24,800 nucleotides of DNA from Bacteroidales bacterium (GCA_035638735.1 DASQZK010000783.1:1-24800), one strand, 5' to 3'; numbered from the stretch's first letter, positions 1 through 17,402 are shown. The notes: generated by a model from the sequence alone, not told the origin. Numbers and translations: made by a program.

Positions 1-514
1 TCGTGCTGTATTTGCCTGTCCAGAATACGATGGCAGCCGCGATGAGTGATGATACGGCTGAACCGGTCTGGGAAGCACTCCGTGTATGGCCGTAATAGTT
101 GACTTTTTGGGCTCCCCATCCTTTTATCCTGAGATATTCGAAGATCATGGCCTTATGTACCCCGCTGCGGAACGCTTCTCCAAGAGAGAAAAAGAGCATG
201 GCAAGGATGAACCAGGGATAGCTTCCGGTGAAGAAAAACGTTGTAAAGGAAACCATGTAAAAAAGGAAAGATCCGGCCAGGGTGCGGCGTCTTCCCCAGG
301 CATCGGCTACCAGTCCGCTCGGGATCTCAAAAAGGTTAACTGTAATCTCCCTGATGGCATAAAGGATACCGATCTGCAGAAAGCTAATCCCCTTTTCGAG
401 AAAGAACAACATCAGGAAGGGTTCGAAAAAGCGCAAATTTTTAAGGAAGCCGTAAGCCTGGAATTTCCTGAATTGCAGATTTTTCCGGATACCGTTCTTC
501 TGCTTTCGTGTCAT
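1..514 (-). CDS. MFS transporter, N-terminal part (3' end runs off the window)
   Basis: Hand translation of the minus strand from ATG 514 is open for 171 codons to the window edge: MTRKQKNGIRKNLQFRKFQAYGFLKNLRFFEPFLMLFFLEKGISFLQIGILYAIREITVNLFEIPSGLVADAWGRRRTLAGSFLFYMVSF...LGEAFRSGVHKAMIFEYL.... It has several hydrophobic helices and MFS motif A (G-x3-D-x-WGRR). The ATG lies 2 nt after the stop of the TPS/TPP gene. It is absent from the ORF track, probably because there is no stop codon in the window. Confidence 0.9.
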   Translation of the reverse strand, partial: MTRKQKNGIRKNLQFRKFQAYGFLKNLRFFEPFLMLFFLEKGISFLQIGILYAIREITVNLFEIPSGLVADAWGRRRTLAGSFLFYMVSFTTFFFTGSYPWFILAMLFFSLGEAFRSGVHKAMIFEYLRIKGWGAQKVNYYGHTRSASQTGSAVSSLIAAAIVFWTGKYST

Positions 515-516
515 GA

Positions 517-2730
517 CTATTTTACTACAGTCTTAAGTATTTCCCTGATGTTTTTATAACCGTCGACAAAGTATTTTGCCCGTGTCGATTTTTCGCCTAC
601 CTTAATAGTGATTGTTTCTTCGGGCAGGTATTCGAAAGTAAACTCATCGGTCCAGTCGTCGCCCATGGCAAGGATGAAATCGTAATGATTATTCCCCATG
701 CGCGACAGGGCTGCCCGTCCCTTGTTGATCCCCGAATTTTTAATTTCTATCACCTTGTCACCATCCATAATCTCGAGGTTAAGGTTTGTTACCAGGCTCT
801 GAAGTTCGTCTTTGAGCTCGTAGGAACGCTGAACGCCCAGATCGGGGTCGGAGTCGCGGTAATGCCAGACCAGGGAATAATTTTTTTCTTCGATAAAGCT
901 TCGCGGTGTGCGGTCAACATAAAAATCGAGAATGGGTTTGATGATCTCCATCCAGTCTTTGTCGATAGCATCAACCGTATGCCACTGACCATCCACTTTT
1001 TTATGCCATACCCCGTGTTCAGCTATAAAACCGATGCGCCAGTCTGCATTGAACCAGTTGGAAAGGGTTTCTTTATCGCGTCCGCTGATGATGACAACAT
1101 TATTTTTCTTGTCAGCCGTGAGCTTTTTGAGAATGCTGTATAATTCCTTATCGGGTTTGGCGTCCTGTGGATCTTTGAAAAAGCCCTGCAGTGTTCCGTC
1201 GTAGTCGAGGAATATCATCCTGTTATTTGACGACTTGTACCTGTCGATAATAGCCTTTGAGATGCGATTGTTTATCTTTCGCGTCAGGTTGTATTCCTGG
1301 TTCTTCTTGACGGCTTTGAGAGCTTCCAGAAAATCGGTTGCCCACTTTTTATTGGTATAGGTTGAAAGTCGTTTTTGAAGGGCCTTATTTCTCCGGATCT
1401 GTTCTTCTTCGGGCATGGAAAGTGCCTGGCAAATGGCGTCTGATATTTCCCGCCTGTTGTTGGGGTTTACAATGACCGCTTCACCCATCTCCTTGGAGGC
1501 GCCGGCCATTTCGGAGAGGATAAGGACGCCTTTCTGATCGGGTTTGGAAGCAATAAATTCTTTTGAAACCAGGTTCATACCGTCCCGTAACGGCGTTACC
1601 AGCGCAATGTCGGACGAGACATACACTTCCACAAGCTGGTCGAAGTTCAGTTCCCTGAAAAAGTAAAAAACAGGCGTCCAGTCTATACGTCCATACTCAC
1701 TGTTGATCTTTCCGACCTGCTGGTCCAGTTCTGCCTTGATCAGCTTGTTTTCGGGATCGTTTTCCCTGAGGGTGGTGATGTACATCAGCAGCGATACTTT
1801 TCGGCGGTAATTCTCGTTTTTCTCAAGAAATTCGCGATAAGCTTTGACCCTGTTAATGAGCCCTTTCGTGTAATCGAGACGTTCCAGTAACAGGATGATC
1901 TTATTGCCGGGCCTTACCCGGACGTGTTTCTCAATTTCATGATGAAAATTCGCCAGCTTTTCGGGTACCTTCACTTTTATTTCTGACGAACGGTTATGGA
2001 ATTTTTCATAGTCAATGCCCATGGGGAAGTTATCGACTTTGAGCTTCCGTTTTTGATAAGTGATCTGGTTAAAATAGGTATCGAGTCCTAAGAGACGTCG
2101 CAGGGAACTGATGAAGTGTCGCTCATAGTCGTAGGTGTGAAAACCTATCAGATCGGCGCCTAACAGGCCCTCGAGCACCTCGATGCGCCAAGGGAGCAGC
2201 CTGAAAACTTCGTAAGATGGGAAGGGAATATGCTGGAAATAGCCGATAGTAAGATCGGGAAAACGTTCCCTGAGCATTTTAGGCAGGAGCATAAGATGAT
2301 AATCGTGTATCCATACCGTATCACCCTTCCGGACGATCTTCTCCAGTTCATCGGCATACTTGTTGTTTACCCGGACGTATTGCATCCATTCTTTTTCGCG
2401 ATACGTCGATTTTTCATTGTAGTAGTGAAACAAAGGCCAGATCGTGCCGTTGGCAAAACCTTCAAGGTATTTCTCTCGCTCTTGCTTCCGCAGGGATATG
2501 GGAAAACAGTTTTTCTTTTTCAGATCTATGTTTATTTCTTCCCATTTTTCGGGTGACAGATCGCGGCGATCCAGACCTGTCCAACCTACCCATAAGGTGT
2601 CGTCTGTTTGATCGAACCTGTCAAGCCCGCTTGTGAAACCGCCAATACGCCGGGTGAGAGCGGTTTCTCCTTTTTTGTTCCGGTAAATTTTTAATGGTAA
2701 CAGATTTGATACAAAGATAAGTCGGCTCAT
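517..2730 (-). CDS. Fused GT20 trehalose-6-phosphate synthase-like domain + HAD trehalose-6-phosphate phosphatase (OtsA-OtsB type fusion); acceptor site of the TPS domain is atypical
   Basis: GT20 motifs WPLFHY, WIHDYHL, HIPFP, RLDYTKG, RDGMNLVSKE. HAD-IIB TPP motifs DYDGTL, SGR, AEHG, WHYR, NKG, GDDWTDE. The track start at 2760 is a TTG; ATG 2730 (MSRLIFVSN, AT-rich upstream) matches the usual family start better. Confidence 0.93.
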   Translation of the reverse strand: MSRLIFVSNLLPLKIYRNKKGETALTRRIGGFTSGLDRFDQTDDTLWVGWTGLDRRDLSPEKWEEINIDLKKKNCFPISLRKQEREKYLEGFANGTIWPLFHYYNEKSTYREKEWMQYVRVNNKYADELEKIVRKGDTVWIHDYHLMLLPKMLRERFPDLTIGYFQHIPFPSYEVFRLLPWRIEVLEGLLGADLIGFHTYDYERHFISSLRRLLGLDTYFNQITYQKRKLKVDNFPMGIDYEKFHNRSSEIKVKVPEKLANFHHEIEKHVRVRPGNKIILLLERLDYTKGLINRVKAYREFLEKNENYRRKVSLLMYITTLRENDPENKLIKAELDQQVGKINSEYGRIDWTPVFYFFRELNFDQLVEVYVSSDIALVTPLRDGMNLVSKEFIASKPDQKGVLILSEMAGASKEMGEAVIVNPNNRREISDAICQALSMPEEEQIRRNKALQKRLSTYTNKKWATDFLEALKAVKKNQEYNLTRKINNRISKAIIDRYKSSNNRMIFLDYDGTLQGFFKDPQDAKPDKELYSILKKLTADKKNNVVIISGRDKETLSNWFNADWRIGFIAEHGVWHKKVDGQWHTVDAIDKDWMEIIKPILDFYVDRTPRSFIEEKNYSLVWHYRDSDPDLGVQRSYELKDELQSLVTNLNLEIMDGDKVIEIKNSGINKGRAALSRMGNNHYDFILAMGDDWTDEFTFEYLPEETITIKVGEKSTRAKYFVDGYKNIREILKTVVK

Positions 2731-2882
2731 ACTTTTTAGGTTGGTATTTGAATAAAACAACGATAATTAATCAACAATTCAAAGCTCCGAAACGTTTTAA
2801 TTATTCAGAAAGTTCAGTGAAATCTGGTGTTATGAGGCTTCTGTCATTCAGTATCATTGCTCATCAACCACCTGCCAGGTTA

Positions 2883-2890
2883 CAAAGATA
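2883..2890 (-). promoter_or_regulatory. Putative Bacteroidota -7 promoter box (TATCTTTG) for the TPS/TPP-MFS operon
   Basis: The plus strand reads CAAAGATA, which is TAnnTTTG on the minus strand, about 150 nt upstream of ATG 2730. No clear -33 TTTG. A 6-position motif in AT-rich DNA can occur by chance. Confidence 0.5.
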
Positions 2891-2926
2891 TAGCGTTAAC
2901 CCATACTAAGAATTCGGCTGTTAACA

Positions 2927-2934
2927 TATATTTG
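2927..2934 (+). promoter_or_regulatory. Putative Bacteroidota -7 promoter box (TATATTTG) for the HAD-GH65 gene
   Basis: Exact TAnnTTTG 61 nt upstream of ATG 2996. No clear -33 element. Confidence 0.55.
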
Positions 2935-2995
2935 TTTAATTTTAGATCAAACAGATCCGATTCTCAATCTTAAATATAATAAAGATACTTTATTT

Positions 2996-5900
2996 ATGGA
3001 AATACATCACTTTGATGCCGTCATATTTGATCTTGATGGAGTCATTACAAAAACGGCGCTGGTGCATTCCTCGGCCTGGACCAGGATGTTTAACGACTTT
3101 CTTACCTCAAGAGAAGAAAAATATGGCGAATCGTATAGCGAGTTTACACACGAAAAAGATTATCTGCCCTATGTTGATGGAAAACCCAGGTATAAAGGGG
3201 TCGCAGACTTTTTAAAGTCGCGTGATATTGACATCCCTTTCGGTGATCCCTCCGATCCTCCCGAAAAAGAAACGGTCTGTGGACTTGGAAACAGGAAGAA
3301 TAATTATTTTACCGACATTCTTGAAAAAGACGGCGTTGAAGTTTACGAAACAAGTGTAGCGTTCATCAGGCAACTTCGGTCTGAAGGTATACGTGTAGGT
3401 GTTGCCTCATCGAGCAAGAACTGTAAGAAGGTGCTTGAAACGGCAGGACTGATTGATCTGTTTGAGACACGTGTTGACGGGTTGGTTTCAGCCGACATGG
3501 GGTTGAAAGGGAAGCCCGAACCCGACATTTTTACTACGGCCTGCGATAACCTGAATGTGGCCTACGACCGCTCTGTGGTAGTGGAAGATGCTGTAAGCGG
3601 TGTACAGGCCGGAGCTGCCGGTGGATTCGGTCTCACCCTTGGCATTGCCAGGGAAGGCAATGTTGCTGAGCTCCGTAAGAACGGGGCTGATATCGTTGTC
3701 GAAGATATTGGTGACCTCGGCGGTATTGAAGCGGTGAACCGCTGGTTTAAGGATGACCTCGAGAAGTTAAGATGGTCTGTACTCTATAAGTCTTACGATA
3801 AAGAGAAGGAAAAATCGCGCGAGGCCCTTCTCACCACCGGAAACGGTTTTTTTGCAAGCCGGGGGGCGATGGAGGAAACTTCTGCCGGTGAATACAACTA
3901 CCCGGGAAGTTATATGACAGGTTTATACAACAGGCGGAAATCCAAAGTGAGTGACCGCTGGATTGAAAATGAAGATTTTGTGAACTTTATAAACTGGCTG
4001 CCGGTGAATTTCAGGGTCGACGGCGGCGAATGGTTCGATCCTAATGCACACGACTTCCATCTTATTGAACGCCGCCTGGATCTGAAGACCGGCATGTTAT
4101 ACCGGTCACTTATTGTTAAACATGATAAGGGACGGGAAACACTCGTCGAGTCCAGGCGTTTTGTGAGTATGGCCGATCCCCACCTTGGCGGGCTTGAATA
4201 TAAGGTGACACCAGTCAACTACGCAGGCAAAATTGAGATCATGTCGGCTCTCGACGGCGATCTGATCAACGACGGCGTCGAACGCTACAGCGACCTGGAC
4301 CAACATCATCTCGATCAGCTCGATCAGGGAACAATGAATGGTCTCGACTATGTCATTGTTAAAACCAACCAATCGGATATTACCGTTTCGGTAGCACAGA
4401 AACTCGACGTGACCCTTGCAGGAAAAATGGTGAACCGTTCATCTTTCGAACCTGTAAAAGGAAAGGTGACTTCATATTTCGAATCGAATGCGGCAGCCAA
4501 TGAATGCTTGCAACTACGTAAAATTGTCTGTATTCATAACTCCCGTGATTTCGAAGTGAACAATCCACTCGGTGCCGTGGCTGAACAATTATCTGCCGAG
4601 GATGATTTTAACAAAATCTTCGGTGCCAGTGAACAGGCCTGGGGAAAAATCTGGAAAAAATCCGATATTGCCATCAGTGGTGACCGATACTCCCAGATGC
4701 TGATCAGGCTGCACATTTTTCATCTCCTCACAACGGCATCTCCCCATCATAAGCACCTCGATGCCGGTATCCCCGCCAGGGGACTGCATGGGGAGGCATA
4801 TCGCGGACATATTTTCTGGGATGAATTATATGTGCTGCCTTTCTTTGCTACCTACTTCCCGGAAACAGCGCGGTCTGTGCTGATGTACCGTTACCGCAGG
4901 CTCAACAAAGCACGCCAGTATGCTGCTGACCATAATTATGAAGGTGCCATGTTCCCGTGGCAGAGCGGAAGCGATGGCAGGGAAGAAACACAGGTCGTTC
5001 ATCTTAATCCGGTATCCGGCGAATGGGGCGATGATTACAGCTCACTGCAAAGACATATATCATCGGCTATCGCTTATAATATATGGCAGTATTATAAAAT
5101 ATCGGCCGACCAGGATTTTATGAATCAGTATGGAGCAGAAATGTTCTTTGAAATTTGCCGTTTCTGGGCTTCAAAGGCCAAAAAGGATGAGAAAACAGGC
5201 CGGTATTCCATCGGTAAGGTTATGGGACCTGACGAATTTCACGAAAAACTGCCCGATGCCGATGAAGGCGGACTAAAAGATAATGCGTATATCAACATCA
5301 TGAGCGCCTGGATAATGAAAACGGCGTTCAGCATCATGGACCAGCTTGATATTAATGAACGCAAAAGGATTGTCGAAAAAATCGAATTAAAGAAAGAGGA
5401 ACTCGTCAAATGGAAAGAGATGTCGCTAAAAATGAATCTTCTCTTTAATGACAACGGCATTCTTGAACAGTTCCAGGGCTATTTCGATCTCAAAGAACTC
5501 GACTGGGACGAATACAGGAAAAAATATGATGACATTCACCGTATGGACCGGATCCTAAAGGCCGAGGGTAATTCACCCGACGATTATAAAGTGGCTAAAC
5601 AGGCCGATGCGCTGATGACATTCTACAACCTCGACAAAGACGAGGTTATCAGTCTGTTACATGATATGGGGTATGAAGCGGATGCCTCCATATTGAAGAA
5701 AAACTTTGATTATTACCTACCCCGTACCTCTCATGGGTCAACCCTGAGCCGCGTGGTTCACGCTTACCTCGCCAGGCTTACCGGTAAAAATGAGCTTTGC
5801 GACGAGCTCTACATGGAAGCCCTGGCCAGTGACTACGTCGATATACAGGGAGGTACCACGGGAGAAGGCATCCATGTGGGCGTCATGGGTGGCACTGTTT

Positions 5901-6151
5901 TAAATGCGCTCACCATTTATGCCGGGGTGAACTGGCATGGGGAGACACTCCGCCTTGATCCGGCTCTTCCCCCGGGCTGGAAAAGTCTCGCATTTAATTT
6001 CAACATCGATGGCCGGCATTTTCACTTCGAGATCTCAGCCCACGACGTGAAGATTCAATATAATTCCGATAATGGATCCCCAGGCAGAATCTTTGTGAAA
6101 GGCATTAAATGTGAACTTGAAAACAGCCGTACCATCTTCGTTGAGTTGTAA
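2996..6151 (+). CDS. Beta-phosphoglucomutase-like HAD domain fused to a GH65 glycoside phosphorylase, probably of the trehalose-6-phosphate phosphorylase (TrePP) clade
   Basis: The N-terminal ~240 aa carry bPGM-type HAD motifs DLDGVITKT, YVDGKPR, ASSSKN, KPEPDIF, VEDAVSG. The GH65 part has LLTTGNG, NEDFVN, ARGLHGEAYRGHIFWDE, catalytic GPDEF, KQAD and SHGSTLS. From memory, ARGLHGEAYRGHIFWDE and NEDFVN are typical of the TrePP/OtsB1 branch rather than maltose or kojibiose phosphorylases. GH65 membership is firm; the substrate is less certain. Confidence 0.88.
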   Translation: MEIHHFDAVIFDLDGVITKTALVHSSAWTRMFNDFLTSREEKYGESYSEFTHEKDYLPYVDGKPRYKGVADFLKSRDIDIPFGDPSDPPEKETVCGLGNRKNNYFTDILEKDGVEVYETSVAFIRQLRSEGIRVGVASSSKNCKKVLETAGLIDLFETRVDGLVSADMGLKGKPEPDIFTTACDNLNVAYDRSVVVEDAVSGVQAGAAGGFGLTLGIAREGNVAELRKNGADIVVEDIGDLGGIEAVNRWFKDDLEKLRWSVLYKSYDKEKEKSREALLTTGNGFFASRGAMEETSAGEYNYPGSYMTGLYNRRKSKVSDRWIENEDFVNFINWLPVNFRVDGGEWFDPNAHDFHLIERRLDLKTGMLYRSLIVKHDKGRETLVESRRFVSMADPHLGGLEYKVTPVNYAGKIEIMSALDGDLINDGVERYSDLDQHHLDQLDQGTMNGLDYVIVKTNQSDITVSVAQKLDVTLAGKMVNRSSFEPVKGKVTSYFESNAAANECLQLRKIVCIHNSRDFEVNNPLGAVAEQLSAEDDFNKIFGASEQAWGKIWKKSDIAISGDRYSQMLIRLHIFHLLTTASPHHKHLDAGIPARGLHGEAYRGHIFWDELYVLPFFATYFPETARSVLMYRYRRLNKARQYAADHNYEGAMFPWQSGSDGREETQVVHLNPVSGEWGDDYSSLQRHISSAIAYNIWQYYKISADQDFMNQYGAEMFFEICRFWASKAKKDEKTGRYSIGKVMGPDEFHEKLPDADEGGLKDNAYINIMSAWIMKTAFSIMDQLDINERKRIVEKIELKKEELVKWKEMSLKMNLLFNDNGILEQFQGYFDLKELDWDEYRKKYDDIHRMDRILKAEGNSPDDYKVAKQADALMTFYNLDKDEVISLLHDMGYEADASILKKNFDYYLPRTSHGSTLSRVVHAYLARLTGKNELCDELYMEALASDYVDIQGGTTGEGIHVGVMGGTVLNALTIYAGVNWHGETLRLDPALPPGWKSLAFNFNIDGRHFHFEISAHDVKIQYNSDNGSPGRIFVKGIKCELENSRTIFVEL

Positions 6152-6221
6152 AAATCGAACATAATTATGGTATTCTAAAGAATTGCTTCTATTTTTGGGA
6201 TTATTTTAATTCCAGATATTT

Positions 6222-6887
6222 ATGCTTGGTGACATACTTATTATCCGTGAAATGCACAAGGCGGCTGCCGAAGCAATTGCAAAAAGGGTTATTCAGGAGA
6301 GAGATAAGCTACATAAAGGTTATAAATTCATTGTTGGCATTTCAGGTGAGTCAGGGGCCGGGAAGTCAGAGGTTTCCCATTCCCTTGCCAGACGTCTTAA
6401 ATCAGAAAGGATTAGAGTCAAGGTACTGCATGCCGACGATTATTATAAAGTTCCTCCGCTGCTTAGAACCGAATGGCGTCGGGTACAAGGCATCGAAACG
6501 GTAGGCATGCAGGAATACGACTGGAACCTGATCCAGCGTAACATCCAGGATTTTAAGGAAGACCGGGAATCAATGATGCCCTGTATCGATATTATCCCCG
6601 AGCAGGTCGATAAACTGATAACCGACTTCAAGAAGATCGACCTCCTGGTGGTTGACGGCTTGTACGCTCTCAAAGCCGACGGATTGGATATGCGTGTCTT
6701 TATTGACCTGGATTACCATGAGACAAAAATTTCACAGATACAGAGAGGTAAAGAAAATCTGGATGACTTCAGGCTTGCCGTCCTTGAAAAAGAACATCAG
6801 AACGTTCTTTCACTTAAACCATTAGCCGATCTGATTATTGATAAGAACTACCAGGTTATCGACCCCAGGACGGGCGAATTCGTATAA
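6222..6887 (+). CDS. P-loop small-molecule kinase, uridine kinase/phosphoribulokinase fold, substrate unknown
   Basis: Walker A ISGESGAGKS, HADDYY (compare SQDSYY of uridine kinases), LVVDGLYAL (compare IIVEGIL) and MRVFID. The uridine-kinase NFDHP motif is not present (VGMQEYDW instead). Confidence 0.75.
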   Translation: MLGDILIIREMHKAAAEAIAKRVIQERDKLHKGYKFIVGISGESGAGKSEVSHSLARRLKSERIRVKVLHADDYYKVPPLLRTEWRRVQGIETVGMQEYDWNLIQRNIQDFKEDRESMMPCIDIIPEQVDKLITDFKKIDLLVVDGLYALKADGLDMRVFIDLDYHETKISQIQRGKENLDDFRLAVLEKEHQNVLSLKPLADLIIDKNYQVIDPRTGEFV

Positions 6888-6974
6888 AAATCCTGTTTTC
6901 TTCCTGAAATAGCCATTCAAATCATGGTTTCCTGAATTTTTTCAGGTAAATTTTGGAAATAATTTCTCATTTCC

Positions 6975-9845
6975 ATGCAAAAGACCTTTTCCGGCATACT
7001 GATAATATGCTTCACTTTTGTCTTTGCTCCTTTTTGGTCTTCCCTGTCGGCCCAGAAGGCGACTAAATCTTTCGTGATCAACTTCAACAAGGAAACTTAC
7101 GGGGCCGGGAGCCAGAACTGGTCCGTTTCTATCGACAGTAGCGGGATCGTATATATCGGGAACAACAAGGGACTGATGAGTTACGACGGGGCCAACTGGA
7201 ACCTTTACCGCATGCCCGACGATATGGTGGTAAGGTCGGTTGCCGCAGGTAGTGAAGAAAGGATCTATGTGGGGGCGTTTGAGGAATTTGGATATTTTTC
7301 ACCAGACGGTCATGGCGGACTGACGTATACTTCGTTGAGCAGCCTGCCCGAAAGTCAGAGTTTCCACAACGATGAAATATGGCGTATCCTGGTCCATAAC
7401 GGCAACGTATATTTTCAGTCATTCTCACATATTTATGTTTACGACGGAAAAAGGGTAAAGGTGATTGATCCCGCCGGAACCATCGTATTGCTTATGGAAG
7501 CCCGCAACCGGGTGTTCGTTCACAAAGTAGGGGATGGCCTGTACGAACTTAAAAATGATAGTCTCGTATTCGTTCCGGGAAGCGAAAAGTTTTCAGACGA
7601 TGAAATAAAGACCATACTGCCTTTTGGAAGGGATGAATTCCTTGCCGGTGCAGCTTCAGGTGGTCTGTATGTCATGGACAACCATGGGTTCAGACCCCTG
7701 GAAAAACCTGTCAATTCGATGATCAGGGATGCTGAGATCAACAACGGAATTGTCCTCGACAGTTTTCTTATCATTGGTACCATCGTTAACGGGATCTATG
7801 TTCTTAATTATGATGGAAGCCTCAGGGAACATCTAAATACAGATAATTTTCTCCAAAACAACACCATTCTGGCTCTGAAGCCTGGAATAGGACGCTCGTT
7901 CTGGGCCGGACTGGACCGGGGTATCGATTATATTAACCTGGATACCCCCCTGACCTTTTATATCGATCCATCGCTCAACAGGCGTGCTGTGTACGATGCT
8001 GCACTTACAGGCGATACACTTTGGGTAGGCACTAATCAGGGTTTGTTCCGCTATGCATACGATCCTTCCTCGGGCTATTCTCACCCCGAACTTGTGGAAG
8101 GCACCCAGGGCCAGGTGTGGGACCTTAGCGTGATTGACGGAGATTTGTACTGCGGCCATACCAACGGAACCTTTCTCATACGTAACGGAGTGCCTGTCCG
8201 TATTTCAGATGTCAACGGTGGATATGAAATCAAGAAAATTAATGCCAACGGCCACGAAATCCTTCTTCAAAGCAGTTACAGTGTGTTCTCAGTCTTTACC
8301 CGTAAAGGCAATATATGGGAATTTTCCAGGGCCATTCCAGGATTTTACGAACCCGTACCGCAATTTGAAACTGATTTTTACGGCTATATTTGGGCTTCGC
8401 ACGCCAATAAAGGTCTGTACCGATTGAAATTTGACCCGGGCTATTCACGCCTCGAGGAGACAAGATATTTCGGACAGGCCAATGGACTGCCTACAGAACG
8501 TCATATTGGCATAGCAACCGTTGATAACCGGGTAGTATTTTGTACCAGGAATAAAATTTATACGTATAACGACCTGTCCGATACCATCGTTCCTTACGAC
8601 TGGCTTAACCAGCAACTTGGTGAATTTGCTTCCTCCGGACGGATTGTAAACGTAGGCCACAACCGTTACTGGTGCGTCGATGGCAATAAGGTTGCCCTGT
8701 TTCATATTGCCAACGGAAAGAGCACCCCCATTTTTACCTACGATCTGTCCCTTCAGGGGGCTACTTTTGGCAGTGGGCAACCGGGAATTTCTGTACTGAA
8801 TAACAGCCTTTACCTCCTGTGTCTGGATAACGGATTTGCCTTGTTCGACCGGTCAGATTCATCTGCACTCGTTGCACCCGCCATGCAACCTATTATCAGG
8901 CAGGTACTGGCTTTCAACCGTAAACATAAACCTTTTCGGTTACCGGCCACTTTAAACGGAAAACAACCTGAGCTGTCCTGGGGACATAGAAATATCGGGT
9001 TTATCTATTCAACCGATCAGATCAGTGTGTCCCCTCTTTTCAGCCATCGCCTGACTGGCATCGAAAACCAGTGGTCGGAGTGGTCGGGCCGTTCAAAAGT
9101 AACCTATACCCGCTTACCTGCCGGAGATTACCGATTTGAGGTTCGTACCATGAAAACGGATGGAACCGCCAGCCAGCCCATACTTTACAGTTTTGGAATA
9201 AAACGGCCATGGTATGCCTCCCTGCTGGCCCTGCTTATTTACGGTATAATGGTGATTGCCGGAGTCGTGGTTCTTCGCATCATCTTTGTCAGGCGGGTAA
9301 GGAAGCATACCCTGCGCATGCAGACCCTTGAAATGGAAAAACGCCGACGCGACAAGATCATCGCCGAACAGGATATCGTCAGGCTCAGGAATGAAAAACT
9401 GCACGCCGAGGTGTCGCATAAAAACATCCAGCTGGCCAATTATACCATGACCATCCTTAAGAAAAACGAACTGCTGATTAAGTTGAGAGATGAAATCAGC
9501 AGGCAAAAGAAGGACCTTGGTGGCAGGTACCCGAACTATCATTACGACCGGCTTATCGCGATGATCGATTCCAATATTTCTTCTGAAGACGACTGGCAAA
9601 TCTTTGAAATGCATTTTGACCAGGCCCATGAAAATTTCTTTATGCGCCTGAAAGCCGCCTATTCCGAACTTACTCCCAGCGATCTTAAGCTTTGTGCTTA
9701 CCTTCGCCTTAATCTCACTTCCAAGGAGATTGCACCGCTGCTCAATATTTCTGTCAGGGGCGTTGAAATACGCCGATACCGTCTCAGAAAACGATTAATA
9801 CTCAATACCGAAGATAACCTCGTGGAGTTTCTCATGAATTTCTAA
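6975..9845 (+). CDS. Membrane-anchored one-component PUL regulator: periplasmic beta-propeller + Y_Y_Y domain, one TM helix, coiled coil, C-terminal LuxR-type HTH
   Basis: N-terminal signal sequence, propeller repeats (YIGNNKGL, WAGLDRG, WVGTNQGL), Y_Y_Y region (HRLTGIENQWSEW...YTRLPAGDYRFEVR), TM WYASLLALLIYGIMVIAGVVVL and HTH LTPSDLKLCAYLRLNLTSKEIAPLLNISVRGVEIRRYRLRKRL. No histidine kinase or receiver motifs. Confidence 0.88.
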   Translation: MQKTFSGILIICFTFVFAPFWSSLSAQKATKSFVINFNKETYGAGSQNWSVSIDSSGIVYIGNNKGLMSYDGANWNLYRMPDDMVVRSVAAGSEERIYVGAFEEFGYFSPDGHGGLTYTSLSSLPESQSFHNDEIWRILVHNGNVYFQSFSHIYVYDGKRVKVIDPAGTIVLLMEARNRVFVHKVGDGLYELKNDSLVFVPGSEKFSDDEIKTILPFGRDEFLAGAASGGLYVMDNHGFRPLEKPVNSMIRDAEINNGIVLDSFLIIGTIVNGIYVLNYDGSLREHLNTDNFLQNNTILALKPGIGRSFWAGLDRGIDYINLDTPLTFYIDPSLNRRAVYDAALTGDTLWVGTNQGLFRYAYDPSSGYSHPELVEGTQGQVWDLSVIDGDLYCGHTNGTFLIRNGVPVRISDVNGGYEIKKINANGHEILLQSSYSVFSVFTRKGNIWEFSRAIPGFYEPVPQFETDFYGYIWASHANKGLYRLKFDPGYSRLEETRYFGQANGLPTERHIGIATVDNRVVFCTRNKIYTYNDLSDTIVPYDWLNQQLGEFASSGRIVNVGHNRYWCVDGNKVALFHIANGKSTPIFTYDLSLQGATFGSGQPGISVLNNSLYLLCLDNGFALFDRSDSSALVAPAMQPIIRQVLAFNRKHKPFRLPATLNGKQPELSWGHRNIGFIYSTDQISVSPLFSHRLTGIENQWSEWSGRSKVTYTRLPAGDYRFEVRTMKTDGTASQPILYSFGIKRPWYASLLALLIYGIMVIAGVVVLRIIFVRRVRKHTLRMQTLEMEKRRRDKIIAEQDIVRLRNEKLHAEVSHKNIQLANYTMTILKKNELLIKLRDEISRQKKDLGGRYPNYHYDRLIAMIDSNISSEDDWQIFEMHFDQAHENFFMRLKAAYSELTPSDLKLCAYLRLNLTSKEIAPLLNISVRGVEIRRYRLRKRLILNTEDNLVEFLMNF

Positions 9846-9864
9846 TATTTCCACCGAGGGCATA

Positions 9865-9955
9865 TCTACATATTTTCTACAACTCTCCATTCTGTATCTA
9901 TTAATTGATAAATGATACCCGTATGATTACTGCGTATGATGTAGTGATGATGTAT
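9865..9955. promoter_or_regulatory. Helically phased repeats, candidate operator of the adjacent LuxR-type regulator
   Basis: TCTACA at 9865 and 9876 (11-bp period, TGTAGA on the minus strand). TGATGTA at 9937 and 9948 (11-bp period). CGTATGAT at 9920 and 9933. All lie between the regulator and the first PUL gene. Confidence 0.45.
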
Positions 9956-10073
9956 GGCTAAAAATGCTGTTTCATAACATGAAGTAATGAAGTGAAGGTA
10001 AAGATTTTCAATAAGATATATTCAAATGATAACTTGTTATTCATTGTTCTTAATGAGAAATTCTTCCCTTACT

Positions 10074-11471
10074 ATGAAAAGAAACAACAAAGCCGCTATG
10101 AAAGCGCTACTGTTTTCCGGTCTGCTTTTTTTCGTTCTAATCGTCTCATGCACCAATAGTAAGAGACCTGCAGAAGCTCCCGACCGGGAGGCTTTTCTTT
10201 CTGATCTTAAACAACGGACCTTCAATTATTTCTGGGAGCAGGTTGATATGCCGACCTGGGGAATCCCCGACCGTTATCCCAGCCGCAGGTTTACGAGCAT
10301 TGCCGCCACTGGTTTTGGTCTGACGTCATACCTGGTGGGCATTGAAAACGGGTATATCACCCGAGAGCAGGGAGCCGGGAGGGTGTTAAATACATTACGC
10401 TGGTTCTGGCATTCGAAACAGGGGCCTGAGAAATCGGGTGTGACCGGATACAAAGGTTTTTATTATCACTTTCTCACCTATGGTGATGGAGAAAGGTTTG
10501 AAAATACTGAGTTATCGACCATCGATACGGGGCTGTTAATGGCTGGGATTCTTTCCTGTCAATCTTATTTCGATGGTGATAATACTGAAGAAACCTCGAT
10601 CAGGGCCCTGGCCGATTCCCTCTACCTAAGGGTACAATGGGACTGGGCTATGAACGGATTGGATGCCATGTCGATGGGTTATCATCCCGGGCAGGGATTT
10701 CTCAAAGCTAAATGGGTGGGTTACAATGAAGCCATGGTGCTGGTCCTGATGGCTATGGGGTCACCGACACATCCTATTGGCGACAGTGCCTGGTCTACCT
10801 GGTGCAAGCCCTATGTATGGGCTGACTTTTATGGTTACGACATGATCAATTTCAGTCCCCTGTTTGGACATCAGTATTCGCAAATGTATGTTGACTTCCG
10901 GGGTATTCAGGATGCATATACTCGCTCAAAGGGCATTGATTATTTCGAAAATTCAAGAAGGGCTACTCTGGGGAACAGGGCGTATTGCATCGACAATCCC
11001 AAAGCTTATGATGGCTACTCCGATAATATATGGGGTCTGACTGCCTGCGACGGTCCGGGCCATAGTGAACAAATGACAGACCACGGCCTCAGGCAATTCT
11101 GGTCTTATCGTGCACGTGGCGCCAGCGCTATTGACACCATTGATGACGGCACCATTGCCCCGACAGCTGCAGGAGGTTCCATACCCTTTGCACCCGACGA
11201 ATGTATAAATGCCCTGATGACCATGAAAGCACAATACGGTGATTCACTATACCGGAAATATGGCTTTTGCGATGCCTTCAATATGACATATAAAACGAGT
11301 AGTGGTAAAAAAGGCTGGTTCGACGTAGATTATATAGGTATTGACCAGGGCCCCATTCTTATCCAGCTGGAAAATTATCAGACAGGACTGATCTGGGACG
11401 TGATGAAGAAAAACAAATATATCGTAGCCGGCCTCAGGAGGGCAGGTTTCAGTGGAGGATGGCTGGAGTAA
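10074..11471 (+). CDS. GH144-like (glucoamylase-family/DUF3131) beta-1,2-glucanase lipoprotein, paralog A, catalytic domain only
   Basis: Motifs QRTFNYFW, SIAATGFGL, GFYYHF, ELSTIDT, GYNE, WGLTACD, GIDQGP. Lipobox LIVS-C. Start uncertain: 10026 (track), 10074 or 10098; the latter two give normal-length signal peptides. Confidence 0.82.
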   Translation: MKRNNKAAMKALLFSGLLFFVLIVSCTNSKRPAEAPDREAFLSDLKQRTFNYFWEQVDMPTWGIPDRYPSRRFTSIAATGFGLTSYLVGIENGYITREQGAGRVLNTLRWFWHSKQGPEKSGVTGYKGFYYHFLTYGDGERFENTELSTIDTGLLMAGILSCQSYFDGDNTEETSIRALADSLYLRVQWDWAMNGLDAMSMGYHPGQGFLKAKWVGYNEAMVLVLMAMGSPTHPIGDSAWSTWCKPYVWADFYGYDMINFSPLFGHQYSQMYVDFRGIQDAYTRSKGIDYFENSRRATLGNRAYCIDNPKAYDGYSDNIWGLTACDGPGHSEQMTDHGLRQFWSYRARGASAIDTIDDGTIAPTAAGGSIPFAPDECINALMTMKAQYGDSLYRKYGFCDAFNMTYKTSSGKKGWFDVDYIGIDQGPILIQLENYQTGLIWDVMKKNKYIVAGLRRAGFSGGWLE

Positions 11472-11547
11472 ATGTTAAAAAAAACGAACAATTTATGCTT
11501 TACATCGCTTATACTCAAATTGATATAACATTCTAAACCGCCTGTCT

Positions 11548-14500
11548 ATGAATTCAAACAAAGGGTCTGGATACCTGAGGATTTTTTCAGTTATCCTGAT
11601 AATGTTGCTTATGGCTCCGGTCGTTTTTGCCCAGCAAAGGCAGATAACCGGCAAGGTGACCGATGCCGCCGATGGAAGCTCTCTGCCGGGAGTCAATGTC
11701 TTTATCAAAGGAACAACCCGGGGAGTGATTACTGATCTTAGCGGGAATTATACCATTCCTGTGAATCCCGGGGACGATACCCTTGCTTTTTCTTATGTCG
11801 GATATCAACCACAAGCCGTCCTCATTGACGATAAAACAGAAATTAATATTCAGCTCAAAGTGGAGGCTGAAGCTATAAATGAAGTAGTGGTGATAGGTTA
11901 CGGAACGGTTAAGAAAAGCGACCTTTCGGGTTCGGTAAGTTCATTAAAATCGGCCGACATCACCAAAATCACTTCTCAAAACCCGGTTCAGTCACTCTCA
12001 GGCAAAGTGGCCGGTATCCATGTCACCAGCAGCTCTGGAGCACCGGGTGCTTCACCGGTTGTAAGGATCCGGGGTGTTGGTACGTTCAATAACTCATCCC
12101 CGATTTATGTCGTCGATGGTGTTATTCTTGACGATATCTCTTTCCTGAACAGTGAAGACATTGCCTCTGTTGAGGTACTTAAAGATGCTTCGGCAACAGC
12201 TATTTACGGTTCACGTGGCGCCAACGGTGTTATCATTGTCACTACCAAGTCGGGCCAGGCAGGGACGGCAAAACCGCAGTTCAGCTTCGATGCCGAATAC
12301 AGCATCCAGCAGGTAGAGAGGAAAATTGACCTGTTGAACGGCCGGCAGTTCGCTACCATTTACAATGAAATCCAGCCGGGGAGGTTCAATAACGTCGACC
12401 TGGTTCCAAATACCAACTGGCAGGACCTGATCTTTCATACAGCTCCCCTCCAGAATTACCAGTTCTCGGTTTCGGGCGCCACAAAGGTCAATCACTATTA
12501 CGTTGGTATTGGCTATTACGGCCAGGAGGGTATTATTGACAAGTCGCTATACCAAAGGCTTTCTCTGAGGTTTAACAATACCTATAACCTGACCGACCAT
12601 ATTACCTTTGGTAACAATATCACTATTGTTCCTTTCAAACAGCGCAATGCCCCCAATGTGACCTATGCTGCTTACCGGGCCCAGCCTGTTTTTACACCTT
12701 ACAATCAGGATGGAAGTTATGCTGAGGTCGAGAATGTGGGCAACCCCCTGGCTGACCTGCATTATTCTCATAATTTCAACAAAGGCGTCAGGGGTGTCGG
12801 TAATATCTACGGACAGGCTGTCATATTTAAGATCCTGACACTTAAATCGAGCTTTGGTGTTGATGCCAATATGGAAAGACCGTTGAATTTCACACCCGCT
12901 TTCCATGTTTCACCCCAGCAGGAAAATGTACTGAGTGACTTATCCAAGGGGCTGAACCAGAGGTTCTCCTGGCTTTGGGAGAACACGGTTACACTGCAGA
13001 AAACATTTGACCAGCATTCTATTAATGCTGTAGCCGGATATACAATGCAGCGTTACAGCTCGGAAATAATTAATCTTCCGGGTGAGAACCTGATCAGGGA
13101 TCAGAGCCAGTTCTGGTACGTGTCGCCCTCGAACATATATGATCCGTCCAATGGTGTGAACACCATACAGGACATTTTCGATGGGGTAGACAATAACCTG
13201 TACTATTCGATGATATCTTATCTTTTCAGGGCAAATTACACTTATAAACAGAGATACATTCTCACCTTTACCTACCGGCGCGACGGTTCCTCCAAGTTCG
13301 CTTCCGGTAACCGTTATGGTGATTTTCCGTCGGGGGCCATTGCCTGGAATGTTTCCCGTGAACCTTTCATGGATAATTTAGAGTTTATCAGCAATCTGAA
13401 GATAAGGGCAAGCTACGGTCTTATAGGAAATGAAAAGATCCAGTACCTGGAACGTTATAACCAGGTAGATCAAAGCCTCCTGGCGGTCTTCGGTATAAAT
13501 GAATCGGCGAATTCTGCGGCTACCTTCGGCCGTAGTGGAAATCCGGGTCTGCACTGGGAGAATACCAAACAGGCCGATGTGGGTGTCGAGATTGGTGCAT
13601 TGAAAAACAAGTTGACGGGTGAGTTTGATTATTATCACCGTAAGACCAATGATATTCTAATTGCTCTGCAGATTCCGGCCATCCTGGGCAACGGTGGCGA
13701 CAAGAAATCATTTAATGCCGCACAGGTACTCAATTCAGGTTTTGAATATAAAGTTGAGTGGCGTGACCGTATAGGCGATTTCAATTACAGCGTAGGACTG
13801 GTAGGGTCCACTGTTCATAACGAAGTGCTGGCCATTGGTGGGTCGAGCGGTTCCGACTCGGTTTTGATCGGTGGTTTCCTGGGTAACGGCATTCCGGTTA
13901 CCCAGAGCAGGGTAGGCCTTCCCATTGGTGCTTTCTATGGTTATGAGACCAACGGGATATTTCAATCCCAGCCAGAACTGGATTCGTATCCCCACTTATC
14001 CAATGCCGGCGTTGGAGATTTACGTTTTGTGAATACGAATCATGATAAGGTGCTCGACGGGAAGGACAGGACTTATATCGGGTCGCCCATTCCGGATGTG
14101 ATTTTCGGCCTAAATATTACGGGTGAATATAAAGGTTTTGACCTGGCCCTGGATTTCCAGGGACAGTATGGCAATAAGATATTTAACGCCAAGGAGGTTG
14201 TCAGGCCCGATCCTTATAATTTTGAAGCCCATGTGTTCGACCGTTGGACCGGTCCGGGAACGAGTACTACCGAACCACGGCCATCGTTTGGCGGTTATAA
14301 CTACATTCCTTCCGACAGATTTATACAGGATGGCTCTTATTTACGTCTCAGGACTTTCGTGCTGGGCTACAGTCTGCCGGCCTCCCTGTTGGCCAAAATG
14401 CCTATCGACAGGCTCAGAATCTACCTGAAAGGGACCAACCTTTATACTCTAACCCAATTTACCGGTTATTCACCCGATATCGCGAGCAGTGATGTGATAT

Positions 14501-14571
14501 CCAACGGCATTGACAGTGGTACATATCCAGTTACCAGGCTTTATTCAATCGGACTAAACATTTCCTTTTAG
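11548..14571 (+). CDS. susC: SusC/RagA-family TonB-dependent outer-membrane transporter
   Basis: Signal peptide, N-terminal extension QITGKVTDAADGSSLPGVNVFIKGT, EVVVIGYG, PIYVVDG, plug signature DIASVEVLKDASATAIYGSRGANGVIIVTTK and C-terminal YPVTRLYSIGLNISF. The symbol denotes the family. Confidence 0.97.
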   Translation: MNSNKGSGYLRIFSVILIMLLMAPVVFAQQRQITGKVTDAADGSSLPGVNVFIKGTTRGVITDLSGNYTIPVNPGDDTLAFSYVGYQPQAVLIDDKTEINIQLKVEAEAINEVVVIGYGTVKKSDLSGSVSSLKSADITKITSQNPVQSLSGKVAGIHVTSSSGAPGASPVVRIRGVGTFNNSSPIYVVDGVILDDISFLNSEDIASVEVLKDASATAIYGSRGANGVIIVTTKSGQAGTAKPQFSFDAEYSIQQVERKIDLLNGRQFATIYNEIQPGRFNNVDLVPNTNWQDLIFHTAPLQNYQFSVSGATKVNHYYVGIGYYGQEGIIDKSLYQRLSLRFNNTYNLTDHITFGNNITIVPFKQRNAPNVTYAAYRAQPVFTPYNQDGSYAEVENVGNPLADLHYSHNFNKGVRGVGNIYGQAVIFKILTLKSSFGVDANMERPLNFTPAFHVSPQQENVLSDLSKGLNQRFSWLWENTVTLQKTFDQHSINAVAGYTMQRYSSEIINLPGENLIRDQSQFWYVSPSNIYDPSNGVNTIQDIFDGVDNNLYYSMISYLFRANYTYKQRYILTFTYRRDGSSKFASGNRYGDFPSGAIAWNVSREPFMDNLEFISNLKIRASYGLIGNEKIQYLERYNQVDQSLLAVFGINESANSAATFGRSGNPGLHWENTKQADVGVEIGALKNKLTGEFDYYHRKTNDILIALQIPAILGNGGDKKSFNAAQVLNSGFEYKVEWRDRIGDFNYSVGLVGSTVHNEVLAIGGSSGSDSVLIGGFLGNGIPVTQSRVGLPIGAFYGYETNGIFQSQPELDSYPHLSNAGVGDLRFVNTNHDKVLDGKDRTYIGSPIPDVIFGLNITGEYKGFDLALDFQGQYGNKIFNAKEVVRPDPYNFEAHVFDRWTGPGTSTTEPRPSFGGYNYIPSDRFIQDGSYLRLRTFVLGYSLPASLLAKMPIDRLRIYLKGTNLYTLTQFTGYSPDIASSDVISNGIDSGTYPVTRLYSIGLNISF

Positions 14572-14573
14572 AT

Positions 14574-16061: not shown

Positions 16062-16096
16062 TAAATTTTTTGTTAAATCTTTAATCTACTTGACTT

Positions 16097-17335: not shown

Positions 17336-17357
17336 TAACTTTCATGATGTTGAAACC

Positions 17358-17387: not shown

Positions 17388-17402
17388 AATTAAAGTAACG
17401 GG

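Follow-up and report, generated by a model that had tools for sequence, protein, structure and literature searches.

The window, which is an entire 24.8-kb contig, carries at one end four genes arranged as two divergent pairs that face away from a common spacer (Table 1). This layout had been read from the sequence in the original prediction, and both the open reading frames and their domains were borne out. The distance between the divergent pairs is 235-265 nt, or about 265 nt if the TPS-TPP gene begins at the ATG at 2730, as it does in the database copy. On one side of the spacer the MFS gene begins 2 nt past the TPS-TPP stop codon; on the other the kinase gene lies 70 nt downstream of the HAD-GH65 fusion gene, with no terminator-like site in the gap between them. 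The hairpin that follows the kinase gene probably closes an operon of fusion and kinase, and an unrelated beta-1,2-glucan PUL comes after it. Alignment with three related loci shows a conserved block containing the palindrome AAACGTTT in the TPS-TPP-proximal part of the spacer, and a TAtaTTTG box, which may be a Bacteroidota -7 element, lies about 55 nt ahead of the fusion ATG. The arrangement is not a chance one, since the fusion and kinase genes recur together in contigs of Bacteroidota and Chloroflexota.

Table 1. Features of the divergent locus, a proposed trehalose 6-phosphate (T6P) module, with positions counted from the first nucleotide of the window.
Feature	Position	Strand	Evidence or remark
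MFS transporter, N-terminal 171 aa	2..514	-	Pfam MFS_1, E 4e-11; truncated at contig end
Bifunctional TPS-TPP	517..2760, probable start ATG 2730	-	GT20 E 7e-143, Trehalose_PPase E 3e-52
TPP domain of TPS-TPP	about 562-1212	-	
GT20 domain of TPS-TPP	about 1315-2724	-	
Divergent intergenic spacer	2731..2995		Alignment with three related loci
HAD/beta-PGM-GH65 fusion, 1051 aa	2996-6151	+	
Beta-phosphoglucomutase-type HAD domain of fusion	2996..3760	+	Asp12 nucleophile 3029-3031, Asp14 3035-3037
GH65 phosphorylase domain of fusion, predicted T6P phosphorylase	3773..6151	+	Pfam GH65 N/m/C domains
GH65 specificity codons	3974-3976, 4961-4963, 4967-4969, 4991-4993, 5033-5035, 5564-5566	+	D327, Q656, G658, Q666, D680, E857
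Putative general acid E747 of GH65	5234-5236	+	
PRK/uridine-kinase-fold P-loop kinase, 221 aa	6222..6887	+	Pfam PRK E 5e-10; Walker A 6345-6368
Terminator-like hairpin and T-rich tail	6931..6946	+	After kinase gene

The GH65 part of the fusion contains the N-terminal, catalytic and C-terminal domains of the family (Pfam E-values 3e-59, 7e-125 and 6e-11, respectively), and its best match in the PDB is the T6P-acting GH65 enzyme 9lb6 (E 1.8e-157), with kojibiose phosphorylase at E 1.4e-97. Its six specificity residues, located at CsKP positions 64, 392, 394, 402, 416 and 585 by HMMER alignment to 3wiq and by MAFFT, read DQGQDE, the residue given to position 416 hinging on the loop alignment. This is the specificity motif defined for T6P phosphorylases (T6PPs) and is shared by the Caldithrix T6PP, whose activity has been confirmed by experiment (PMC8537180), and the same alignment returns the motifs of the maltose (KV..), kojibiose (EEAP) and trehalose phosphorylase (TR..) outgroups. 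Residues E747, K868, S915/T916 and H960 do not vary among the fusions and match the E-K-S-S-H of outgroups with the phosphorylase motif; going by the maltose phosphorylase structure, K868, S915/T916 and H960 are candidate phosphate-site residues, as would befit a phosphorylase as opposed to a hydrolase. A GH65 plus pgmB locus of Lentilactobacillus is 40% identical. In a tree of 110 T6PP-like GH65s, which places no characterised T6PP directly, an SH-aLRT value of 100% supports the split between the family and the maltose, kojibiose and trehalose phosphorylase (MP-, KP- and TP-type) outgroups. Motif, best PDB match and tree all agree with the original assignment of this domain to the T6P phosphorylase group, and we infer from them that its substrate is T6P. 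An enzyme acting on some other alpha-glucoside, with or without a phosphate (trehalose, kojibiose or a maltose phosphate), with trehalose genes nearby by coincidence, appears very improbable: the motif method is predictive only, and positions 394 (G/A) and 402 (Q/P) vary across the T6PP-like family, but the motif of the window matches the verified one exactly, the family stands apart from the outgroups, and the neighbours in every context are trehalose or T6P enzymes, namely TPS-TPP, TreS-like proteins and two unrelated families of T6P phosphatase.

The best solved relative of the HAD domain is PDB 8h5s, titled 'Beta-phosphoglucomutase' (E 1.5e-60). By comparison with Lactococcus lactis beta-PGM the domain of the window keeps the DxDG, cap Gly-x-x-Arg, SSSKN, KPxPD and ED motifs, and its FDLDGVIT, DGKPR, SSSKN, GKPEPDIF and VEDA segments align with those of both the L. 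lactis enzyme and 8h5s. The domain passes the NCBIfam subfamily model TIGR02009 (156.1 bits against 153.35) and falls below the equivalog cut-off of TIGR01990 (105.8 bits against 189.4). The earlier beta-PGM assignment (EC 5.4.2.6) therefore stands as far as the catalytic motifs compared are concerned. The fusion would thereby hold in one chain the reversible interconversion of T6P and phosphate with beta-glucose-1-phosphate and G6P, and of these with two G6P.

The tree resolves three clades that differ in their partner gene; the loci counted below belong to related genomes and metagenome contigs and cannot be treated as independent. In the clade of the window (clade K), the kinase gene lies directly downstream in 37 of the 43 loci with room for it, and the upstream position is taken by a divergent TPS-TPP gene in 17/36 and by a TreS-like GH13 enzyme in 9/36. 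About half of the clade-K loci have no nearby phosphatase, showing instead a combination of TreS-like enzyme, fusion and kinase. In a sister clade, to which all the green sulfur bacteria sampled belong, the gene immediately upstream encodes an intact T6P phosphatase in 31 of 32 loci, and there is no kinase. The third clade is without a conserved partner. In the green sulfur bacteria the gap between phosphatase, with its DRDGT motif, and GH65 gene is -3 to 46 nt, except at one locus (142 nt). None of 61 such genomes yielded an OtsA/GT20, and no TreY scored above the cut-off there. An intact T6P phosphatase also adjoins a T6PP-like GH65 in G091 and G504, and this adjacency is seen in three other architectures, that of the green sulfur bacteria included. 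The kinase and the Brugia-type T6P phosphatase, partners of sister GH65 clades, never both occur beside the fusion (0/32). The Lentilactobacillus-type GH65, a catabolic enzyme, falls with clade K on a long branch. The original view of the four genes as a unit is not upheld by this survey: the core consists of fusion and kinase, roughly one locus in two also has TPS-TPP, and the MFS gene is not conserved. The transporter, also proposed as a member of the unit, is kept in near relatives only (L006-L008) and was not found at the related loci L005, L010 and L012; its orthologue in L006 is a full-length, generic MFS_1/MFS_1_like protein of 423 aa, and the MFS gene probably lies outside the module core.

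A comparison of the TPS-TPP with OtsA/OtsB and other bifunctional enzymes shows the same architecture of GT20 and HAD-IIB TPP domains, with an intact donor site and intact TPP motifs. The donor and catalytic residues of GT20 (His154, Arg262, Lys267, Asp361 and Glu369 in E. coli numbering) are present within IHDYHL, ERLDYTKG and RDGMNLVSKE and are kept in 103-120 of 120 relatives; the TPP domain has motif I (LDYDGTL), SGR and GDD, and, as a member of PF02358/TIGR00685, scores 140.1 bits with TIGR00685 (cut-off 68.05). The protein passes the NCBIfam bifunctional equivalog (940 bits against 634) and misses the TIGR02400 OtsA cut-off, and its conservation is higher in the TPP domain (68%) than in the TPS domain (52%). 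It is the sole GT20 found in this genome, and each genus relative searched has one GT20 locus. Unlike OtsA, the TPS domain has Leu in place of both Arg9 (2701-2703, VSNLLP replacing SNR) and Tyr76 (2464-2466, KYLEGF replacing YYxGF), two residues that bind the G6P phosphate in the E. coli enzyme; the Arg300 equivalent is still Arg, but in an altered TLRE context. Canonical Bacteroidia TPS-TPPs keep all three in 40 of 40 cases (SNR, YY.GF, VPSR). In those linked to the module, Arg9 (replaced by L, E, K, Q, M, I or S), Tyr76 and sometimes Arg300 (replaced by G/E/D/N) are lost, with donor site and TPP motif both preserved. The original observation of an intact TPP domain beside a damaged acceptor-phosphate site is thus confirmed and extended, as the damage is specific to module-linked proteins. 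The further proposal that the TPS domain is dispensable fares less well: conservation of the donor site argues that the domain is not simply dead, and since GalU is also present in the genome, it may still act with altered acceptor binding.

These observations bear on the possibility that the two arms of the locus are separate, with TPS-TPP an ordinary UDP-glucose-dependent synthase whose G6P binding is lineage-specific, fusion and kinase serving only to degrade trehalose (internal trehalose once stress has eased, or imported), and the T6P hub never reversed in vivo. Divergent transcription with co-transcribed fusion and kinase would suit such a division, as would the conserved donor and catalytic residues, the bifunctional equivalog match, GalU and the position of the catabolic Lentilactobacillus-type GH65 with clade K; module-linked TPS-TPPs adjoining unfused beta-PGM and GH65 genes, moreover, retain Arg9 and Arg300. 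We nevertheless consider it unlikely, as the clamp has been lost repeatedly and independently, and only in the module context, and as the TPS-TPP of locus L176 lacks even the catalytic Arg262/Lys267 yet retains DYDGTL.

The kinase passes Pfam only at the level of the PRK family (39.9 against 22) and falls below all NCBIfam equivalog cut-offs, the best being 52 bits against 180 (udk). It is 88-90% identical among relatives whose fusions are only 76-79% identical. AgaSK of Ruminococcus gnavus combines a GH36 alpha-galactosidase with a sucrose kinase in a fusion protein, in which a PRK/APS-kinase-like P-loop domain phosphorylates a disaccharide. The predicted structure of the kinase resembles an Atlas cluster of AgaSK sucrose kinases (TM 0.86 over 209 residues), and AgaSK gave no detectable sequence match in a PDB search. 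Matches in the PDB are generic (UCK2, PanK, PRK and FrcK-like, with TM of about 0.6) and include 3c8u, titled fructokinase, with no characterised close relative among them. Unlike the kinase domain of AgaSK, that of the window stands alone; it is a candidate trehalose 6-kinase. Members of its family are fused to TPS-TPP-like, GH13, GT4 (SPS-like) and GH100 (invertase) modules, and three of these partners (invertase, SPS-like GT4 and GH13) would suit a hexokinase just as well. Fusions to the TPS-TPP-like module occur in loci that also encode GH65, HAD and TPS-TPP proteins, and the catalytic residues of these tri-domain proteins are altered (DYNGTL, Arg/Lys lost). At one locus, L177, the GH65, HAD, TPS-TPP and kinase-TPS*-TPP* genes are all on the same strand, an arrangement ill-suited to simple opposite regulation.

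A hexokinase would be expected if the whole module were anabolic, a reading that extends the main hypothesis of the original prediction, with the kinase supplying G6P, beta-PGM converting it to beta-glucose-1-phosphate, GH65 condensing the two to T6P, the TPP domain pulling the reaction forward and the TPS domain redundant or regulatory. The T6P phosphatase linkage in sister clades and the lack of any OtsA found in green sulfur bacteria speak for such a module, together with the erosion of the TPS acceptor site (as far as catalytic loss in L176), the kinases fused to or on the same strand as TPS-TPP-like proteins, and the invertase and SPS-like fusions and fructokinase match of the kinase. It seems rather doubtful all the same: about half of the clade-K loci have TreS-like enzyme, fusion and kinase with no phosphatase nearby, the mutual exclusion of kinase and Brugia-type phosphatase would be odd if the kinase merely fed synthesis, and the altered TPS and TPP parts of the tri-domain proteins are no working synthase in need of G6P.

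We favor, at a probability of roughly 0.5, the reading of this locus as a PTS-independent trehalose module centred on T6P, in which the reversible hub of the fusion would be flanked by two irreversible enzymes, the kinase and the TPP domain. In breakdown, the co-transcribed kinase would most likely phosphorylate free trehalose to T6P and feed the hub, converting trehalose and ATP to two G6P and substituting for the lactococcal PTS; a search of the genome, at 80% completeness, gave no match to PTS_EIIC, and GH37 trehalases are encoded there too. In accumulation, the TPP domain of the divergent TPS-TPP would free trehalose from T6P, and since the TPS domain still has a nucleotide-sugar site but no longer the G6P clamp, the hub in reverse may supply that T6P in part or wholly (2 G6P to T6P and Pi, and on to trehalose and 2 Pi). 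A trehalose kinase beside a T6P phosphatase is also a potential futile cycle. Both the direction of flux and the kinase substrate are inferred here. The synthetic direction put forward in the original prediction has good support in the sister clade, from T6P phosphatase adjacency and the lack of detected OtsA, and is plausible in the locus of the window, where the clade's own partner, a kinase and never the Brugia-type phosphatase, suggests mobilisation; as this kinase is co-transcribed with the fusion, the catabolic alternative raised at the same time is at least as likely here. That reverse T6P phosphorolysis is a natural, nucleotide-sugar-free trehalose route in this locus, feeding the TPP domain, with the kinase as trehalose 6-kinase for the return, is a tentative proposal somewhat short of even odds. 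As a de novo route in green sulfur bacteria it is fairly probable, since no OtsA or TreY was found there and the T6PP-fusion operon is conserved.

Five routes of trehalose synthesis are generally listed (OtsAB, TreS, TreYZ, TreT and TreP), and T6P is attributed to TPS, or to the PTS in the case of lactic acid bacteria. We found no description in the literature of a UDP-glucose-independent trehalose route of the present kind. The nearest catabolic system, in which the L. lactis PTS delivers T6P to TrePP (GH65, EC 2.4.1.216) and PgmB, has both chemistries, the GH65 motif and gene adjacency in common with the window. Unlike L. lactis, the window joins both enzymes in one polypeptide with no PTS EIIC found, has a PRK-fold kinase as conserved partner and links TPS-TPP divergently. 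T6P synthesis via T6PP works in vitro, in cascades with or without beta-PGM (Taguchi 2020, as summarised in PMC11442529; PMC13121652). These cascades run the same reaction of beta-glucose-1-phosphate and G6P to T6P and Pi, with beta-PGM linking the sugar phosphates, and show the direction to be feasible; they are engineered, and are called new-to-nature and TPS-independent by their authors, whereas the operons described here are natural ones, in which the phosphorylase is joined by a T6P phosphatase or a kinase. OtsB1 of Mycobacterium tuberculosis (Rv2006, 1327 aa) is reported to be a TPP homologue of unknown function without T6P phosphatase activity (PMC11046441). The order of HAD-TPP-like domain and then GH65, which the original prediction proposed for OtsB1, is seen in a Bacteroidia family (f107); unlike OtsB1, the fusion chain of the window lacks a TPP domain.

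If T6PP and beta-PGM are reversed in vivo, this would constitute a further trehalose route, cheaper by one UTP. Green sulfur bacteria build up trehalose when stressed by salt (PMC7824335), and such a route would explain how they can possess a T6P phosphatase although no OtsA was detected in them. For the production of T6P without cofactors, T6PP/beta-PGM enzymes that are naturally fused or thermostable would also be of practical value. Recurrent clamp loss in linked TPS domains offers a natural experiment on a bifunctional enzyme whose intermediate a neighbour can supply, and may bear on the unexplained mycobacterial OtsB1. If the PRK-fold kinase acts as a trehalose 6-kinase, this activity would be a novel one and would provide Bacteroidota and Chloroflexota with a PTS-free entry to the T6P pathway.

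The beta-phosphoglucomutase (beta-PGM)-GH65 fusion of the window belongs to a conserved, PTS-independent module, robustly recovered here, in which a trehalose-6-phosphate (T6P) phosphorylase and a beta-PGM are tied to either a kinase or a T6P phosphatase. The mutase and phosphorylase form one chain in the window, and no PTS EIIC was found in its genome, a Bacteroidales MAG of 816 contigs that is ~80% complete and in which the window constitutes an entire 24.8-kb contig. The gene layout described in the original prediction was borne out by the ORFs, domains, spacer and strands, with the database copy of the TPS-TPP beginning at ATG 2730 and no terminator-like hairpin in the fusion-kinase gap.

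Positions of features in the window, the rest of its genome and the related loci cited in the text
Feature	Position	Strand	Remarks
MFS gene	2-514	minus	truncated at contig end
TPS-TPP, 747 aa	517-2760	minus	GT20 E 7e-143, Trehalose_PPase E 3e-52
Conserved spacer block	2760-2830		TPS-TPP side of spacer; ~60 nt, nearly invariant in four related loci
Divergent spacer			235-265 nt, between TPS-TPP and fusion
HAD-GH65 fusion, 1051 aa	2996-6151	plus	
PRK/uridine-kinase-family protein, 221 aa	6222-6887	plus	70 nt past fusion
Terminator-like hairpin	6931-6946		3' of kinase
Polysaccharide-utilisation locus (SusC/SusD)	6975-19391		
GH37 trehalases, same genome	G000:C92:30-1451; G000:C200:813-1961; G000:C253:31-891		entry also covers second GH65
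Green sulfur phosphatase-fusion locus (example)	L016:6639-11181		
Kinase-GT20-TPP protein loci	L176:8001-10853; L177:5728-8574		

The HAD half of the fusion matches PDB 8h5s ("Beta-phosphoglucomutase") at E 1.5e-60 and, like L. lactis beta-PGM, has the DxDG nucleophile pair, the cap Arg and the motifs SSSKN, KPxPD and ED; its score clears the beta-PGM subfamily cut-off and falls short of the strict equivalog one. The nearest PDB entry to the GH65 half is 9lb6, a T6P-acting GH65 (E 1.8e-157, versus 1.4e-97 for kojibiose phosphorylase and 3e-61 for maltose phosphorylase), whose source is probably the T6P phosphorylase structure paper cited in PMC13121652. De Beul et al. (PMC8537180) defined six GH65 specificity positions and showed by experiment that a DQGQDE-bearing Caldithrix enzyme forms T6P from beta-glucose-1-phosphate and glucose 6-phosphate (G6P). 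The corresponding window residues are D327-Q656-G658-Q666-D680-E857. In a single alignment of 120 GH65 proteins gathered for this analysis, all fusion relatives read DQ[GA][QP].DE, while Bacteroidia GH65 genes adjoining pgmB carry the maltose phosphorylase motif KV.., the second GH65 of green sulfur bacteria the kojibiose phosphorylase motif EEAP, and one other protein the trehalose phosphorylase motif TR... Given the nearest structure and the DQGQDE motif, the window GH65 is a well-supported predicted T6P phosphorylase, and we place the probability that the reversible chemistry linking T6P and Pi to two G6P is right at about 0.85.

A scan of genome contigs with the single fusion protein yielded five loci, and sampling was therefore widened to whole genomes and one metagenome scan. 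The resulting 110 T6P phosphorylase-like GH65 genes with flanks came from close relatives, assemblies, 300 genomes sampled across the phylum and the metagenome scan; all counts draw on related genomes or contigs and lack independence. G396 and G468, both unpublished genomes, contribute to a single tally, and no claim depends on them. The tree was built without the characterised L. lactis, Caldithrix and Kuenenia enzymes and without PDB chains; as proxies we used the specificity motif from the literature, the alignment with 9lb6 and one Lentilactobacillus locus. The T6P phosphorylase-like proteins split from the outgroups with 100% SH-aLRT and form three supported clades, so that motif, nearest structure and tree together uphold and extend the clade assignment of the original prediction.

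Clade K (49 rows) includes the window and, on a long branch, the Lentilactobacillus GH65 and pgmB locus. The kinase lies directly downstream in 37 of the 43 clade K loci with room for it, in some as a tandem pair. The upstream position is taken by a divergent TPS-TPP (17/36), a co-directional TreS-like GH13 (9/36; E 2e-119 to trehalose synthase 5x7u) or another gene (10). The pairing with a kinase is best understood, above all where a TreS-like enzyme is present and a phosphatase is missing from the neighbourhood, as one in which the kinase provides T6P for breakdown. The TreS-like proteins, of ~570 aa, stand directly upstream of and co-directional with clade K fusions that have no TPS-TPP neighbour (L046, L050, L060, L067, L070-L072, L044, L101 and L073); on TIGR02456 they score ~465 bits, under the cut-off, with the match confined to the first 380 model positions. 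Two tandem kinase paralogues follow the fusion in metagenome loci L043, L051, L053, L055, L056, L067 and L098. In clade P (33 rows), a 440-aa Brugia-type T6P phosphatase is directly upstream in 31 of 32 loci, at a gap of -3 to 46 nt with one locus excepted; it has Pfam T6PP_N and T6PP_C, matches PDB 4ofz at E 7e-33 and keeps DRDGT intact. The kinase was never present in clade P loci. Pairing with a phosphatase would be pointless unless the T6P came from the phosphorylase, which points to synthesis. A search for a partner of clade N (28 rows) found none in common, its neighbours being mixed central-metabolism and stress genes; the exceptions are two members from Bacteroidia, in which the gene immediately 5' of the GH65 encodes a PF02358 T6P phosphatase.

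The phosphatase arrangement is found in green sulfur bacteria, identified in the sample (family f22) by the FMO protein in 5/5 genomes and 0/14 controls. All 63 sampled green sulfur genomes have a full-length fusion, 47-50% identical to that of the window, and the 16 fetched loci (L013-L028) all place a T6P phosphatase directly upstream. The two genes form an operon, the Brugia-type phosphatase (T6PP_N and T6PP_C, DRDGT) preceding the fusion. No GT20 was found in 61 green sulfur genomes, of which 54 reach 90% completeness or more, and no PF02358 TPP in five complete ones. These genomes thus keep a conserved T6P phosphatase although no T6P synthase was found in them, and the phosphatase is co-transcribed with two activities that can make T6P from G6P; the operon is most simply explained by the synthetic direction from 2 G6P to T6P to trehalose. 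Trehalose accumulation under salt stress has been reported for green sulfur bacteria (PMC7824335). An alternative source of this trehalose would be TreS acting on maltose. TreS is present within an ORF of ~1100 aa in 54 of the 61 genomes, and no TreY scored over the cut-off in any of them. Kinase homologues elsewhere in green sulfur genomes were considered as partners and set aside, their neighbours being unrelated. A second beta-PGM-GH65 fusion, of clade N and ~41% identical to that of the window, was seen in L029-L031 (genomes G218, G150 and G242); at L029 it has a two-component system downstream and adjoins phosphoketolase, acetate kinase and a P-type ATPase. The phosphatase-fusion operon is a candidate for OtsA-independent trehalose synthesis. 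T6P synthesis by T6P phosphorylase was termed new-to-nature in a 2026 paper, and our literature searches, outside subscription journals, found neither natural synthesis of this kind nor an account of the green sulfur operon.

The assignment of the clade K kinase is the weakest link of the model. The window protein has an intact Walker A motif and a PRK/uridine-kinase fold, and misses all curated kinase equivalogs. PDB fold and profile searches for its identity gave generic matches only: the predicted model (pLDDT 87) matches UCK2, PanK, PRK and FrcK-like proteins at TM ~0.6 only, and AgaSK, a galactosidase-sucrose kinase, was not recovered in PDB. The ESM Atlas offers closer neighbours among predicted structures, including a cluster that bears the AgaSK name (TM 0.86) as well as GH13 or SPS-like GT proteins with a fused kinase domain. 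Several of the ~100 representatives found at E <= 1e-30 by exhaustive profile search are tri-domain kinase-GT20-TPP proteins of ~950 aa, a fusion that shows the kinase acting in physical association with a module of trehalose/T6P type. Tri-domain proteins were observed at loci L176 and L177 (proteins P0248, P0250, P0251 and P0253). In their GT20 part, Arg9, Gly-Gly, Tyr76 and partly Lys267 are no longer present, and TPP motif I reads DYNGTL; they neighbor a GH65 with DQGQDE, an unfused beta-PGM and a second TPS-TPP with an eroded TPS half, all on the same strand in L177. In our reading, the altered TPP part serves to bind T6P or trehalose, a role that favors a trehalose/T6P kinase. A hexose kinase would equally fit, as family members are fused to invertase and SPS-like enzymes, and we rate trehalose kinase as an even bet. 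Literature searches, outside subscription journals, did not find a trehalose kinase enzyme.

The proposed combination of an intact TPP domain with a damaged TPS acceptor site was confirmed and extends to module-linked relatives. Compared with fungal Tps1 structures, SNR is replaced by SNL and YY.GF by YL.GF in the window TPS; in E. coli OtsA, the G6P phosphate is held by Arg9, Tyr76 and Arg300. TPS-TPPs drawn from 400 sampled genomes of the class served as the canonical comparison: nearly all lack an adjoining GH65, and 40/40 keep SNR, [FY]Y.GF and VPSR (one has AYRLP instead of SNR, with Arg9 still there). In the GH65-module-linked family, 53-100% identical to the window TPS-TPP, Tyr76 is substituted in all aligned members, and a more divergent protein at L177 retains it. 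Arg9 is retained only alongside separate beta-PGM and GH65 genes (L123, L124), being L, E, K, Q, M, I or S elsewhere, and Arg300 is lost in several lineages. The change of Arg9 to Leu was rejected as a marker of fusion linkage, as a divergent cluster with unfused beta-PGM and GH65 has an Arg9-bearing TPS; substitution at Tyr76 is the broader marker. A distant TPS-TPP at L176 has also lost the catalytic Arg262 and Lys267 while keeping the TPP motif DYDGTL. Among 120 relatives, His154, Arg262, Lys267, Asp361 and Glu369 are conserved in 103-120, and mean identity is 68% in the TPP domain versus 52% in the TPS domain. Conservation of these donor and catalytic residues argues against simple decay, and judging from sequence the TPS domain probably still binds a nucleotide sugar. 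GalU is present in the genome; the window TPS-TPP is the only GT20 found there, and in every genus relative searched its counterpart is likewise the sole GT20 locus. Fragmented TPS-TPP matches (two genus relatives, L008) were rejected as pseudogenes and look like assembly error, because the L008 fusion is fragmented likewise. In loci L148/L174 (genome G504), L131, L150 and L155 (family f107), a beta-PGM-like HAD and a PF02358 TPP-like domain (DYDGTL), apparently in one 550-aa frame, precede a T6P phosphorylase-like GH65, the order that the original prediction gave for OtsB1. These genes are divergent from a canonical TPS-TPP with Arg9, Tyr76 and Arg300 kept.

The proposed four-gene unit did not hold up: the core is fusion and kinase, the TPS-TPP is frequent and the MFS gene, rejected as a component since its conservation ends at near relatives, is incidental. 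Within the spacer, the conserved block contains the palindrome AAACGTTT and may serve the TPS-TPP/MFS operon as an operator or a 5'-leader element; the half of the spacer nearer the fusion shows little conservation except a TAnnTTTG-like box. The neighboring polysaccharide-utilisation locus encodes a Y_Y_Y/LuxR-type regulator, a GH144-like protein, SusC, SusD, a Big_5/Laminin_G protein and a second GH144-like protein with Ig-like domains, and looks like a locus for beta-1,2-glucan use. Its synteny is kept in close relatives (L005-L007), and it is functionally apart from the trehalose genes.

The synthetic direction favored by the original prediction is strongly suggested for the phosphatase-linked sister clade; that the window locus also runs this way, with the hub feeding TPP in this organism, is a tentative reading that we hold at somewhat below even odds. 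The conversion of 2 G6P to T6P and Pi by T6P phosphorylase and beta-PGM would be roughly isoergonic, a point we do not count as evidence. The genome also encodes, at the end of a contig, another GH65 that is only distantly related (28% identity). Its GH37 trehalases lie on other contigs, so the module is not the organism's sole means of trehalose use. Because the window carries both partners, the kinase in the fusion operon and TPP across the divergent spacer, we read its locus as a reversible hub with two one-way valves.
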